Positions 14,262-49,709 of a stretch of 64,000 bases of DNA are shown in pieces (the first letter of the stretch is position 1; every line of letters begins with the position of its first letter). Source of the DNA: Planctomycetota bacterium (lineage in GTDB: Bacteria; Planctomycetota; SZUA-567; H5-PLA8); contig JACQFI010000044.1 in the NCBI GenBank assembly GCA_016200135.1, forward strand, positions 15,390 through 79,389. Reading direction: 5' to 3'. The notes beneath the pieces are model-generated. The model was not told the origin of the DNA, made no database searches, and was given only the letters and a program-made list of their open reading frames with translations. A program made the position numbers and the translations under genes.

Positions 14262-15347
14262 GTGGGATTAGAATCGCTTACCGAGTCTCAACTCGTTGCC
14301 TACGGCTATTTCGAGAAGCTGCCCGATGGCCGTTGGGCCGTGGACCCCAAGCATCCTGAATGCGGATGTGTTGAAGGTCCGGCGGCCATCCAAGATCCCG
14401 CGATCTCGAAGGCCAAAGCCATTGGCAACTGCCAGCTCTGTTCAAACTGGAACCCGCGCGTCGGCTGCGTGCTGGGAAGCAATCTCGCACTCAGCGAAAG
14501 CCGTTGCAACCAATCGCCCATGCAGTTTGTGACGGAACAGGCCCATGCCTGGGTGGAGATCGGCCGCTTCGACCGGGCGATCTCGCGGCTGGAGACCTAC
14601 CTGAAGGCTCACAGCGACAGCCCCGACGCCTACTTGGCATTGGCCAAGGTGTACGACCATCCCGGATACCACGGCAAGGACAAGCGTCGCGCGATTGTGC
14701 TCTATGGGCGCTACATGGAGCTAAGAGGAAAGAACGCCCAATATCATCCTGAGTTCAAAAGAGCGGCGGTGCGCGTTCAGGTGCTGAGCCGGCAGGCGGT
14801 TCCGTCTTCCGCGGCAGCCGAAGAGGCGCCGCCTTTGGCCACGTTCAATTGCTTCCACCGCAGCGGGGGCCTCACCCACTTCTATGCCTGCGCGCTTACG
14901 TATGACGTGCTGGTGATGGCGTACGTGGGCGACGCCGACCCCGACTCGGGCATATCCTCGCTAGAGGTGGGCGAAACGTTCGAGAAAGCGACCTTTCTTT
15001 GGCGCAAGCTGATGGGCGAGAAAGACCTTAAACAGGAGATCGCGCTGACGGCTAAGGAGATCGAACACGTCAGTGGGCTTAATCCCGTGGCCATGGCCAA
15101 AGATCACCGTTCCAATCTCTGGATTCACCTCAACTCTGTCAAGAAGACCGCTGTCGAGGACGATGCCAAACGCGGTATCCGCAGGGTCACTATCTGGAGC
15201 GGCACGTCCGCCTATGAACTTCTCTTTCCCATGGCTCAAGCGAACCGAGCCGATCACGTCACGGCGCTGGTGCGCTTCCTTTCAAGCGAGGCCTCTCTAT
15301 CGTCCGTCACGCATCCCAAGACCAAATCTTCTTCGGTTGGCGCCTAG
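14262..15347 (+). CDS. Stand-alone paralog of the kinase C-terminal domain (unknown-function Cys-motif domain)
   Basis: GTG start with an AGGGAG RBS. Its 361 aa align end to end with residues ~470-813 of the downstream kinase. Shared blocks include YFxKxxDGRWxxD, CxLCxNWNxRxGC, GRFDxAIxxLE, YxxLAxxYxxPxYxGKDxxRAIxLYGRxxEL, FxCFxRSxG and DPDxGxS. Confidence 0.7.
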   Translation: MGLESLTESQLVAYGYFEKLPDGRWAVDPKHPECGCVEGPAAIQDPAISKAKAIGNCQLCSNWNPRVGCVLGSNLALSESRCNQSPMQFVTEQAHAWVEIGRFDRAISRLETYLKAHSDSPDAYLALAKVYDHPGYHGKDKRRAIVLYGRYMELRGKNAQYHPEFKRAAVRVQVLSRQAVPSSAAAEEAPPLATFNCFHRSGGLTHFYACALTYDVLVMAYVGDADPDSGISSLEVGETFEKATFLWRKLMGEKDLKQEIALTAKEIEHVSGLNPVAMAKDHRSNLWIHLNSVKKTAVEDDAKRGIRRVTIWSGTSAYELLFPMAQANRADHVTALVRFLSSEASLSSVTHPKTKSSSVGA

Positions 15348-22159: not shown

Positions 22160-23422
22160 TTATGGAAGGTAGGGAATGGTCATCGGGCCTTCGGGCAGCA
22201 CGGCCACGGGCGCGTCGCGGCCGATGCGCTTGAGTTCCTCGTCCAGCCGCGCGCCGAGGTCGCGCACGGGTTCGAGGTGCGCGCGGCGGATCTCGTCGTC
22301 CGGAATTTTGCTATAGAACCCCACGCGCGCCTTCAAGCGGATGATCGCGAGCAACTGCGCCTCCCACTGGTCGTAGACGCTGAAGCCCGGCGAGTGGATC
22401 TTGTCCAGCAGCGCCTGCGGCGAAGCATGGTCGAAGAGCAGCGTGCGGAAGTTGCCGTGCGCGGGAAACCCGTCGCGGCATTCCGAGGCCTCGAGGATGT
22501 ACCCGCCTTCGGTCACGATCTTGGCCGCCGCCGACATGCCCTTTACGGCTTGGTAGAGATTTTGGTCGAGCGGGTAGCCGCTATTGGTGGTGACGACGAG
22601 CGGGAAGGGCTTCTCGCACTTCACCATCACGGTGGCCTTCGAAAACGCGCAGCCCTGCTGATGCGCCTGCATGACATCGCCGCAGAAGAACTTCGTGATC
22701 TGGCGCTTCTTGTTCTGCGTCACGTTGATCAGGAAATCGACAGGCAGCGCCGAACCGAGTTGGCACACGATGGCCTGCGTGGGATTGCCTTCGAGCACGC
22801 CCCACGTGCTGAGCGGGTTGCCGATCACGGTCGCGCCGTGGTAACGCATGATCGAGGAAATGTCCGCCACCGCGGGAAAGACGCCTTTGAACCCGCCGCT
22901 GAAACCCGCCATGAAGTGCGGCTCGATAAAGCCCATTACGATTCGCTTGTCGGCCTCGACGTACGCGCGGTTCAGCATCAACGCCTGGCCGTCGGACCAC
23001 GCCCCGGCGCGCAAAAGCGTCTGCGGGTCGTGGCTGTTGTGGTTCACAATCCGGTACTTGGCCGCGATATCCGCGCCGACCATCTCGTTGAGTTCGTCCG
23101 GCGTATTAACGCGGTGCGACCCCGTCCCGTTGATGATAACGAACCGGTCCGCGGGCACGTGGTCCAGCTCCGCGAAGAGCCAGCGCAGAATGCGGCCGGT
23201 GGGCAGCGGGCGCGTGATGTCGGGGATCACCACCGCGACACGGTCGCCGGACTTGATGAGTTCTTTAAGTGGTTTCGTCCCGAGCGGCGCGCGCACGGCT
23301 TCTTTGAAGCCCGCGCCTTCGTCGGGCAGGCCGTCGAGATACTTCGGCGCGAGCACGGTCACGTTCGTGCCGGGAACTTCGGCCTCGATGCCGTCGTTGC
23401 CGTATTGGAGATGAACTTTCAT
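22160..23422 (-). CDS. LarA-family (nickel-pincer nucleotide-dependent) racemase/epimerase homolog
   Basis: ~420 aa with the LarA N-terminal domain (DUF2088) pattern ...RVAVVIPDITRPLP...FIEPHFMAGFSGG... and conserved His/Lys positions. Substrate is unknown. Confidence 0.75.
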   Translation of the reverse strand: MKVHLQYGNDGIEAEVPGTNVTVLAPKYLDGLPDEGAGFKEAVRAPLGTKPLKELIKSGDRVAVVIPDITRPLPTGRILRWLFAELDHVPADRFVIINGTGSHRVNTPDELNEMVGADIAAKYRIVNHNSHDPQTLLRAGAWSDGQALMLNRAYVEADKRIVMGFIEPHFMAGFSGGFKGVFPAVADISSIMRYHGATVIGNPLSTWGVLEGNPTQAIVCQLGSALPVDFLINVTQNKKRQITKFFCGDVMQAHQQGCAFSKATVMVKCEKPFPLVVTTNSGYPLDQNLYQAVKGMSAAAKIVTEGGYILEASECRDGFPAHGNFRTLLFDHASPQALLDKIHSPGFSVYDQWEAQLLAIIRLKARVGFYSKIPDDEIRRAHLEPVRDLGARLDEELKRIGRDAPVAVLPEGPMTIPYLP

Positions 23423-23473
23423 GCGCGCGGTTGTAGCCGAAGGCGCGGAGGAATCAAAGCACGCGCGCGAGCG

Positions 23474-23950
23474 CTACGCCTGCGGTTCATCGGTGCGCAG
23501 CGTATTGAGCTTCTCGCGCAGCTCCGAGACCTTTTGGCGCAGGTCCTTCACGCGGTTGATCTCTTCCTCCACCTCGCGGTCGCCGGCGCGCACGCTGGCC
23601 GTGGGGGAATCGTCCCACAGCTCCACAATCCGCTTGCCGAGCGCCGCGTAGGCGCTGTTCAGCGCGAGCTTCTCGCGTTCCAGATCGGCCTTGGTGATGC
23701 CCATCTTGCCGTACTTCTCGACCTTAGCGACGCCGATCTTGCCTAGGCGCTTGGCCTCGGAGCCGATGTCCAGCAGCGCGTCGCCGAGTTGGTCGAGGAG
23801 CCGCGTCTTGGACTCGGGCTGCCCGCCCGAGACCGATGCACCGCCGGAACTCGCGGCGCCCGATTGCGGATCTGCGGACGGAGCTTCCGGCTCGGCGGCC
23901 GGTTTGCGTTCGCTCTTGGACTTGCGGCTGCTCTTCGGGGACTTCGCCAT
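23474..23950 (-). CDS. Hypothetical protein with disordered basic N-terminus and coiled-coil C-terminus
   Basis: ORF with coding-like composition. Segments are heptad-like (LEREKLALNSAYAALGKRIVEL..., EEINRVKDLRQKVSELREKLNTL). Confidence 0.5.
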   Translation of the reverse strand: MAKSPKSSRKSKSERKPAAEPEAPSADPQSGAASSGGASVSGGQPESKTRLLDQLGDALLDIGSEAKRLGKIGVAKVEKYGKMGITKADLEREKLALNSAYAALGKRIVELWDDSPTASVRAGDREVEEEINRVKDLRQKVSELREKLNTLRTDEPQA

Positions 23951-24249
23951 GACGCGAGCGCTCCTAACTTGAGGTACAGGCGCTAAAAGGGGCAGTCAGT
24001 GAAGCAAGGAATGGAAACAGCTTAACAAAATCGCCGACCGAGGCAAGGAGCCCGCGCCGGCCACCTTGCGTAGTGGCCCTATTACGCTCCGCGCACCGGC
24101 TCTTTCACGATAAATTTCGCACCTTGGCGCAGTGCCTCAAGGACGGCATTTCACATCGGCTTCAATTCAGCCGTGCTTTGTGCCTTGACCTCTTTGCGCG
24201 AGCCCGATTACGCACGCGAAATCCCGGAGAGCCGCGGTAAACTTCGCGC

Positions 24250-48086: not shown

Positions 48087-48668
48087 TTACGGCTCAATCT
48101 TCGTCCCCAGCACCTTCAGGAACTTGGCGAGCCATTCCGGATGCGCGGGCCACGCGGGCGCGGTGACCAGGTTGCCGTCCTCGTAGGCGCGGTCCACGGG
48201 CATGGCAACGAACTTGCCCCCCGCGCCCTTGATATCCGGCCCGACCGCCGGGTAGGCCGTGCACTTCCGGCCCTTCAGCGCGTCGGCCGCGGCGAGCACC
48301 TGCAATCCGTGGCAGATGGAGGCGATGGGCTTGTTCGCATCCGCGAAGTGCCGGACGATATGCAGGACGTCCTCGTTGAGGCGGATGTATTCCGGCGCGC
48401 GCCCGCCGGGAATCACCAGCGCGTCGTATTTCTCGGGCTTGATCCTGTCGAAATCCGCATTCAGCGCGAAGTCGTGCCCGCGCTTCTCGCTGTAGGTCTG
48501 GTCGCCCTCGAAGTCGTGCACCACCGTGCGGACCTTCTCGCCCGCCTTCTTGCCGGGACAGACCGCGTGGACCGTGTGTCCGACCATTAGCAGTGCCTGG
48601 AACGGCACCATCGCCTCGTAGTCCTCCACGTAGTCGCCGACGAGCATCAGGATTTTTTTCGCGGGCAT
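48087..48668 (-). CDS. DJ-1/PfpI family protein (class-I glutamine amidotransferase-like)
   Basis: [14 protein letters not shown], nucleophile elbow [13 protein letters not shown], ~190 aa. Confidence 0.85.
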
Positions 48669-48758
48669 AGCGAGTTCCTTTCTATTGGTCATTGGTCGTT
48701 GGTCATTTTACATGGGTCATTTAACTGCAAAACAGCCAAGGGCCAAATGACAAATGAG

Positions 48759-48890
48759 TGCTCTGTTGAAAACCCGCGGCCGCAGCGGGAATTCCCCCCT
48801 TAAGTAAGGGGGGATACAGGGGGGTAACCCCTTCGCGGCCTTAACCTCCCCTTACCCCTCCTTACATAAGGAGGGGAATTCAACAGAGCA
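48759..48890. repeat. Complex nested palindromic intergenic element (~130 bp): outer 12-bp inverted repeats enclosing three consecutive GC-rich hairpins with TTA(N)TAA loops
   Basis: Outer repeats are tgctctgttgaa (48759-70) and ttcaacagagca (48879-90). Internal hairpins are cccgc-ggccgca-gcggg, cccccc-ttaagtaa-gggggg (48794-48813), gggg-gtaa-cccc and cccctcc-ttacataa-ggagggg (48855-48876). gggaattc is repeated at both inner ends. An upstream run of four ggtcatt units lies at 48685-48720. Confidence 0.5.
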
Positions 48891-48908
48891 ACAAATGACC
48901 AATTGAAT

Positions 48909-49709
48909 TCACGCCTTGAACCGCGCCTGATAGAGAAACACTGCCGCCGCCGCGGAGACATTCAGCGAGTCCTGTCCGCCCGCGAGCGGGATCGCGACGA
49001 ACTCGTCGCATGCCGCACGGACCTCCGCCGAGAGCCCCGTGAACTCGGTGCCGAAGACCAGGCAGCAGTGCTCGGGAAAACGGTAGGCGTTCAGCGCCGT
49101 GGCGCCGCCGGGATCGGCTCCGACGATCCGCGCGCCGAACTCGCCGCGCAACCGCCGCAGCATCTCGGCCAGATGCGGTGCATGCAGGATCGGCAGCGCG
49201 AAGACGCCGCCCATCGAGTTCCGCACGGCGCGGCGCAGCCAGGGGCTGCACGAGGTCTCGCCCGAGAGCAGCGCCGTGGCGCCGAGCGCCGCGCAGCTCC
49301 GCACGATCACGCCCACGTTGTCGGCCTCGACCAGGCCGTCGAGCGCCACCAGCCGGCGCGGCGGCTTCGCGGCGGCCAGCACCGCTTTAAGGTCCGGCTC
49401 GGGCGGGCACTCGCCCAGCGCCATCACGCCGTGGTGGTACTCGACGCCCAGCACCTTCTCGATCGCTTTGCGTTCGGCGACGTGGACCACGATCTCGCTG
49501 CGTATTTCCAATGCCGGGCGGAAACGCTCAAACTGATCGGGCGTGCAGAGCACCGCACGGACCTTGAGTGCCGTTTGCAGCAGCCGCTCGATCACTAGCG
49601 GCCCTTCGGCCACGAAGAGCCCCTGATCGAACGGGAATTTGGGACGCCGCAGCGTCAGGAACGGTTTCAGGTCCGGCGCGTCGAGGTCCAGGACATGCGT
49701 AACGGTCAT
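48909..49709 (-). CDS. SpoU/TrmH-family (SPOUT) RNA 2'-O-methyltransferase
   Basis: LVALDGLVEADNVGVIVRSCAALGATALL and ...NSMGGVFALPI..., C-terminal SLNVSAAAAVFLYQ; typical TrmH motifs. Confidence 0.85.
   Translation of the reverse strand: MTVTHVLDLDAPDLKPFLTLRRPKFPFDQGLFVAEGPLVIERLLQTALKVRAVLCTPDQFERFRPALEIRSEIVVHVAERKAIEKVLGVEYHHGVMALGECPPEPDLKAVLAAAKPPRRLVALDGLVEADNVGVIVRSCAALGATALLSGETSCSPWLRRAVRNSMGGVFALPILHAPHLAEMLRRLRGEFGARIVGADPGGATALNAYRFPEHCCLVFGTEFTGLSAEVRAACDEFVAIPLAGGQDSLNVSAAAAVFLYQARFKA

Follow-up and report, generated by a model that had tools for sequence, protein, structure and literature searches.

The nested palindromes between a SpoU-type RNA methyltransferase gene and a DJ-1/PfpI gene, in a 64-kb stretch of planctomycete DNA (64,000 nucleotides, hereafter the window), are very probably a non-coding miniature inverted-repeat transposable element (MITE), at 48759-48890. 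In our reading this is a non-autonomous derivative of an IS5-family insertion sequence (IS) of the IS903/ISH1 clade, moved in trans and inserted between the two genes. We assign it to the IS5 family because its ends are identical to those of full-length IS5-family elements and because it is flanked by a 9-bp duplication, as is IS903. An earlier sequence-only reading of this DNA had already suggested a MITE, and that suggestion is borne out by the terminal repeats, the target duplication, two empty sites, and ends common to small elements and to IS5-family insertion sequences. For annotation, the palindromes at this locus are accordingly best treated as a mobile-element insertion and not as a riboswitch, an sRNA or a REP cluster, and annotators should mask the element. 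The features of the locus are collected in Table 1.

Table 1. Coordinates of the element and its surroundings in the window
Feature	Position	Strand	Evidence or remark
Probable MITE, 132 bp, non-coding (TGCTCTGTTGAA ... TTCAACAGAGCA)	48759-48890	.	Terminal repeats, flanking duplication, hairpins, empty sites
Left terminal inverted repeat TGCTCTGTTGAA	48759-48770 (imperfect extension to 48775)	+	
Right terminal inverted repeat, reverse complement of TGCTCTGTTGAA	48879-48890 (imperfect extension to 48874)	-	
Target-site duplication, copy 1, ACAAATGAG	48750-48758	+	8/9 match to copy 2
Target-site duplication, copy 2, ACAAATGAC	48891-48899	+	Removal of 48759-48899 restores the junction of the relatives
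Internal hairpin CCCGC-GGCCGCA-GCGGG	48773-48789	.	Followed by TTTTC of the terminal repeat on the - strand
Internal hairpin TCCCCCCTTA-AG-TAAGGGGGGA	48793-48814	.	10-bp arms, 100% complementary; unique in the window
Internal hairpin GGGG-GTAA-CCCC	48820-48831	.	Sequence reading
Internal hairpin CCCCTCCTTA-CA-TAAGGAGGGG	48855-48876	.	10-bp arms, 100% complementary
SpoU-type RNA methyltransferase gene	48909-49709	-	
DJ-1/PfpI gene	48087-48668	-	
Native DJ-1 upstream spacer, outside the MITE	48669-48749	-	Conserved in L004 and L005, both without the MITE
Native spacer directly 3' of the SpoU stop codon	48900-48908	-	Sequence reading

A 132-bp insertion between the SpoU and DJ-1 genes

The comparison of the empty site in relatives, which the sequence-only reading had proposed, gave a clean presence/absence pattern. 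The two closest SpoU relatives, L004 (SpoU 90% identical) and L005 (86%), keep the order SpoU, DJ-1, alpha/beta-hydrolase and lack the element in the orthologous spacer, which is 113 and 120 bp long in these loci versus 240 bp in the window. Deletion of 132 + 9 bp (48759-48899) from the window leaves a 99-bp spacer with the junction ...TTTGTCATTTGGCCC..., and this reconstructed empty site aligns through with both relatives. Read on the - strand, the window has ...GGTCATTTGT / TGCTCTGTTGAA...TTCAACAGAGCA / CTCATTTGTCATTTGGCCC..., where the relatives have ...CCTTTTGTCATTTGGCCC... at the same place. The SpoU protein of the window is itself 100% identical to an NCBI protein from a 'Planctomycetes bacterium' MAG. 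Both junctions of the element are also present at 100% identity in the independent Logan short-read assemblies L001-L003 (two runs), and the insertion is therefore not an artefact of the MAG assembly. The Logan contigs themselves stop inside the element: L001 and L002 end at about 48848 and L003 starts at about 48815, and some 32 nt in the G-rich centre are missing from the assemblies. The element would account for these shared breaks, whether through a repeat branch, through variation in the population or through a drop in coverage linked to the hairpins.

The terminal repeats match perfectly over 12 of 12 positions, and their complementarity is 15/17 when extended. At up to one mismatch this TGCTCTGTTGAA pair gives the only matches in the 64-kb window (expected number 0.15), and none of 100 shuffled sequences reaches two. 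Immediately outside the terminal repeats lies a 9-bp direct repeat, ACAAATGA(G/C), with one mismatch; a one-base shift gives an alternative reading as a perfect repeat of 8 bp. Every feature listed by the sequence-only reading (four GGTCATT units, 12-bp terminal repeats, hairpins and two copies of GGGAATTC) was found where it had been placed, and several of them now have a different meaning. The element occupies 132 bp of the region of about 220 bp originally proposed. The GGGAATTC copies (48787-48794 and 48874-48881), once considered as a possible target-site duplication, both lie within the element, the second overlapping the right terminal repeat; the true duplication is ACAAATGAG / ACAAATGAC, outside the terminal repeats. 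The arms of the hairpin at 48793-48814 can also be written (T)CCCCCCTTA/TAAGGGGGG(A). At 132 bp the element is well within the size of a MITE (below about 500 bp), and it has no transposase-sized open reading frame: all six frames contain stops and the longest open run is about 30 codons.

The GGTCATT units, which had been counted among the parts of the element, belong instead to the native sequence upstream of DJ-1 and are partly conserved in the element-free relatives. Three copies are on the + strand (48687, 48701 and 48715) and one is on the - strand (48894-48900). The insertion duplicated one of the units, and the unit at 48894 lies mostly within the new copy of the target. Besides the AATGACC/GGTCATT units, the native spacer at 48669-48749 contains a conserved GTCATTTGGCCC..GTTAAATGACC inverted repeat and an AAGGAA ribosome-binding site, 5' of the ATG at 48668 that starts DJ-1; the same start is called in the Logan assemblies.

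Two further observations concern the sequences on either side. Upstream of DJ-1 (window 48669-48757; L004 960-1005; L005 967-1012), an inverted pair GTCATTT/AAATGAC around GGCCC(A/T)(A/T)GGC is conserved in the relatives while the remaining spacer has diverged, and the window carries extra AATGACC units with a 14-nt spacing (48687, 48701, 48715). This arrangement has the look of an operator or of a structure in the 5' UTR. At the SpoU C-terminus (window 48909-48935 vs L004 905-930), proteins of 266 and 270 aa end in ...YQARFKA and ...YQARKRTVQGS, respectively, which looks like a deletion of about 10 nt just 5' of the stop codon, beside the insertion site.

Several GC-rich hairpins in succession between two genes would also be compatible with a REP/BIME-like palindrome cluster, as had been considered, or with a palindromic spacer that evolved locally and never moved. 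However, neither these hairpins nor any similar sequence recurs in the 64-kb window, and REPs lack the 12-bp terminal inverted repeats and the target duplications that are both present here. Under local evolution, a clean 141-bp presence/absence, a duplicated target and known IS ends would all be unexpected. These readings are largely refuted, and we give them almost no weight.

Could the region instead be a structured RNA or a cis-regulatory element (an sRNA, a UTR structure, a terminator or an insulator), with the transposon features incidental or the element co-opted? The spacer (246 nt folded) is predicted to be far more stable than shuffled sequences on both strands (z = -6.05 and -7.89; 0/200 shuffles as good), both neighbouring genes run in the same direction, with the DJ-1 start 90 nt downstream of the element, and on the transcribed strand the element's CCCGC/GCGGG hairpin is followed by TTTTC. 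Strong predicted folding follows from the hairpin-rich interior, without any need for function, and equal folding on both strands is what DNA inverted repeats are expected to give. Against an RNA, no Rfam family reached its gathering threshold anywhere in the window, and for the region itself a search at E <= 10 matched generic miRNA hairpins only, at 22-25 bits versus cut-offs of 58-100. Neither a terminator-like nor a promoter-like site was called inside 48759-48890, the sole intrinsic-terminator call of the region being at 48658-48674 on the + strand, outside the element; a scan of the 64-kb window for tRNA and tmRNA found none. Moreover, relatives that keep this gene pair lack the element, which is therefore no conserved regulatory component here. 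The dedicated structured RNA that the sequence-only reading offered as its alternative thus has no Rfam family at threshold and a sequence missing from close relatives, and we hold this explanation to be very improbable.

We therefore read the hairpins as typical MITE filler, since no promoter- or terminator-like site lies inside the element and no Rfam family matches it. The inserted MITE may influence SpoU read-through or the expression of DJ-1, which starts 90 nt downstream. Were the two genes transcribed together, the mRNA would contain the element as a long hairpin, 90 nt upstream of the DJ-1 start codon. That the hairpin-rich interiors are under selection, acting between genes as terminators, insulators or structures that stabilise mRNA, and that the window copy now modulates SpoU/DJ-1 expression, seems to us unlikely.

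A wide set of small elements with the same ends

No second copy of the element was found in the 64-kb window by self-BLAST or by motif counts. A relaxed search of the window gave one other terminal-repeat pair, at 14435-14764 (330 bp); this pair falls within a 361-aa ORF, its repeats do not extend further, and it is therefore a chance match. The picture changed when one genome per species, from 185,579 species, was scanned with the pattern GCTCTGTTGAA-N93-123-TTCAACAGAGC. At least 117 loci match this two-end pattern, versus about one expected by chance (estimated as 596e9 x 31 / 4^22). Among the matches listed there are 118 elements of 119-147 bp, which fall into 32 interior clusters, and several genomes hold 4-13 near-identical copies. 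The end consensus of the set is (T/G)GCTCTGTTGAAAA(C/G)CT.

Only the ends are common to the window element and this set: its interior type is absent among the at least 117 retrieved loci, a search of JGI metagenome contigs for the end plus the TTA-NN-TAA hairpin gave 0 matches, and six-frame peptides of the element gave 0 matches among 5.8 billion predicted proteins. Elements of other interior types that carry these ends occur in multiple copies within their respective genomes. The sequence-only reading had named, as part of its refutation, a single-copy element with no homologues. In line with the first half of this description, no second copy of the interior type was found in the window, the at least 117 retrieved loci, JGI metagenome contigs or predicted proteins; contrary to the second half, homologues by shared ends are abundant.

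Among the matches listed, the Planctomycetota are represented by Phycisphaerales, Sedimentisphaerales, Pirellulales, Planctomycetaceae, Brocadiaceae, Gemmata and Tepidisphaeraceae; other bacteria by Hydrogenedentales, Chloroflexota, one Verrucomicrobiae MAG and one Actinomycetes MAG; and the archaea by haloarchaea, Methanomicrobiales, Woesearchaeota and other DPANN lineages, and Jordarchaeia. The window element may belong to a very large set of elements of about 120-145 bp, present in bacteria and archaea, with the terminus GCTCTGTTGAA and hairpin-rich interiors specific to each lineage. One interior type, with the module GTCATTCTGAACGGAGCG...GAATCTC, is common to MAGs labelled Sedimentisphaerales, Pirellulales, Phycisphaerae, Brocadiaceae and, in one case, Actinomycetes (L007, L022, L025, L045, L048, L062, L064, L077, L082, L090, L094, L098, L106, L112, L114 and L118), a distribution that suggests horizontal spread or binning cross-contamination. 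We found no paper describing a small-element set with these ends and none on planctomycete MITEs of this type; a literature search with the terminal sequence returned unrelated primers only. The 11-nt terminus would offer a handle for cataloguing MITEs in uncultured lineages.

Target duplications were classified in the 118 elements by a single rule, in which the element consists of one base, the conserved core and one base, and the duplication may contain at most one mismatch. Among the matches listed, archaeal copies have 8 bp rather than 9 bp in a ratio of 41:7, whereas bacterial copies have 9 bp rather than 8 bp in a ratio of 35:3. Under the same rule the window copy falls in the 9-bp class, like 35 of the 38 classified bacterial copies among the matches listed. 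The duplicated targets are AT-rich (65% AT vs 47% in the surrounding DNA, among the matches listed). Duplications of 8 bp in archaea and 9 bp in bacteria would point to two related lineages of transposase acting on one shared end, and the difference could help in asking how IS903-type and ISH1-type transposases set the spacing of their cuts.

Full-length elements that share the ends

A Natrinema plasmid that carries one of the small elements also carries an annotated IS5-family element whose ends are GGCTCTATTGAATCC and whose target duplication measures 8 bp. Its 276-aa transposase scores 170.8 bits on NCBIfam NF033579 (cut-off 140) and belongs to Pfam DDE_Tnp_1, and its homologues on haloarchaeal plasmids are annotated as ISH28-, ISHvo1- and ISHma10-like. 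We take these haloarchaeal relatives to be the 'ISH1 group' of ISfinder, the end of ISH1 itself being presumably TGCCTTGTT. At 23231-24162 the Natrinema plasmid (L123) has another copy of this IS5-family element, which is degraded and carries no annotation; its ends are GCTCTATTGAAAATG / GCTTTATTGAAAACG, and it lacks a duplication.

Exact identity to the window end was found in other full-length elements. In Halorientalis marina (L128), a 938-bp IS encodes a 277-aa IS5-family transposase, its left end TGCTCTGTTGAATCC is identical to the window end at 12 of 12 positions, and it is flanked on both sides by the 8-bp duplication GATTAGAA. In a set of 80 metagenomic relatives (full-length IS of 926-938 bp), TGCTCTGTTGAA occurs at nine ends, and a perfect duplication of 8 bp flanks 22 of the elements; L139 has TGCTCTGTTGAA at both ends. 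The IS903 end GGCTTTGTTGAATAAATC, verified at 100% identity in plasmid records, is identical to the window end at 10 of 12 positions, and the IS903 transposase scores 353 bits on NF033579, the same model as the Natrinema homologue. The target duplication of IS903 is 9 bp (PMC10513040), and among IS903 copies in viral contigs, classified by the rule used for the small elements, we found 9 bp in 46/63 and 8 bp in none. A single terminal type, (G/T)GCTnTGTTGAA, hence covers the window (TGCTCTGTTGAA), IS903 (GGCTTTGTTGAA), and L128 and L139 (TGCTCTGTTGAA), and the duplication of the window copy, in class 9, is one of the two lengths of these IS5-family elements (9 bp in the IS903 type, 8 bp in the ISH1 type).

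We also considered that the MITE was moved by a transposase of the IS6/IS26 family, or of the ISPna2 group of the IS1595 family, rather than by one of the IS5/IS903 clade. ISPna2-group elements have the end signature GGCnnTG and an 8-bp duplication. The terminal consensus of bacterial IS6/IS26 elements is GGTTCTGTTGCAAA, with positions 3-4 the most variable and 8-bp duplications (PMC6807381; PMC7986276). On the ends, IS6/IS26 looks a better fit than IS903. The IS6/IS26 consensus agrees with the left end of the window element, TGCTCTGTTGAAAA, at 11/14 positions and with the G-type consensus of the retrieved set, GGCTCTGTTGAAAA, at 12/14. Two MITEs are listed under IS6 in ISfinder, and the window's flanking repeat can be given the perfect 8-bp reading described above. 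Nevertheless, bacterial copies with these ends duplicate 9 bp (35:3 among the matches listed), and the window copy scores as 9 bp; position 11 is A in the window end and C in the IS6 consensus; full-length elements with the exact 12-nt end encode IS5-family and not IS6-family transposases; and the IS6 MITEs measure 227 and 336 bp, not about 130 bp. The combination of GGTTCTGTTGCAAA ends with an 8-bp duplication does not describe the window element. Given the bacterial 9-bp duplications and the exact ends on IS5-family elements, we do not favour IS6/IS26, and consider a source in either of these other families improbable.

No IS5-type transposase (NF033579/PF01609) is encoded in the window or, among the matches listed, beside any bacterial copy of the small elements. 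Profile HMM and tblastn searches of the at least 117 8-kb loci with IS903, ISH1-like and IS26 transposases detected only haloarchaeal remnants, in L095 and L050. Where two ends lie 700-3500 bp apart in the retrieved loci, the pairs enclose genes for radical SAM proteins, an ABC ATPase, an SSF transporter and other ordinary genes, with no transposases among them. By tblastn against plasmids, the haloarchaeal transposase matched haloarchaea only, with no bacterial homologue, and no bacterial full-length partner IS with the exact window end was present in the retrieved loci, plasmids or viral contigs. In viral contigs, ISH1-like relatives were not found, an IS903-led profile recovered almost only IS903 itself, and the one-end pattern occurred at 14 loci with no transposase.

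Two of the loci met in these searches deserve separate mention. In Halobaculum gomorrense (L095, 1055-1615), a 123-bp small element adjoins a truncated ISH1-like transposase gene (query residues 129-274); it is a MITE inserted into, or beside, a decayed copy of the presumed helper family. Three related phage contigs contain a 386-bp stretch with terminal-repeat-like 11-mers at its two borders (L292 5977-6362, L294 1470-1855 and L297 796-1181). This pair is not evidence of mobility because its flanks are identical in all three contigs, and the stretch is probably homologous phage sequence and not a mobile insertion.

Proposed mobilisation and comparison with known systems

MITEs of IS5-family elements are well known, and the window element is ordinary in kind; the breadth of the end-sharing set and the domain-specific duplication length are by-products of following up the sequence-only reading. 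By analogy with IS903 and with other MITEs, we infer that a full-length IS5-family element of the IS903/ISH1 clade supplied the transposase in trans, and that this transposase would have bound the TGCTCTGTTGAA ends, since the element has no coding capacity and brings with it only the two terminal repeats recognised by a DDE transposase. The target would have been the AT-rich ACAAATGAC, which begins 9 nt past the stop codon of SpoU; after a 9-bp staggered cut there the element would have been joined in, and gap repair would then have produced the flanking 9-bp duplication, one mismatch having been acquired since. The insertion presumably postdates the split from the two element-free relatives (SpoU 86-90% identical). 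The hairpin-rich interior would be lineage-specific filler, as in all such elements. MITEs share only terminal bases and duplication length with the transposon that mobilises them (PMC3119063).

Among known systems, REP/BIME clusters resemble the window element in being intergenic GC-rich palindromes, but they have no long terminal inverted repeats or target duplication, and they call for many dispersed copies of one 20-40-bp imperfect palindrome; no such copies occur in the window. IS6/IS26 elements, together with MITEBth2 and MITEHarch3, have the very similar terminal consensus GGTTCTGTTGCAAA but differ in the 8-bp duplication, the C at position 11, the size of their MITEs (227 and 336 bp; PMC7986276) and the transposase family. 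The HqIRS MITEs of Haloquadratum walsbyi (PMC3119063) and bacterial MITEs in general are likewise short and non-coding, with helper-type ends and duplication length and an interior unrelated to the helper; the window element is distinguished from them by its planctomycete host and by an interior that matches nothing retrieved. The haloarchaeal ISH28/ISHvo1/ISHma10-like elements have, in some members, the same first 12 nt, their best NCBIfam model is that of IS903, and the archaeal small elements share their 8-bp duplication. They differ from the window element in being autonomous, archaeal and 926-938 bp long, and in duplicating 8 bp and not 9 bp. IS903 (IS5 family, IS903 group; 1057 bp, E. 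coli/Klebsiella) is autonomous, with an annotated 322-aa DDE transposase, whereas the window element is non-coding and 132 bp long, and beyond position 12 the two diverge (TAAATC in IS903 versus AACCCG / TTCCCC in the window). Its end GGCTTTGTTGAA nevertheless agrees with TGCTCTGTTGAA at 10/12 positions, and its 9-bp duplication has the same length as that of the window copy.
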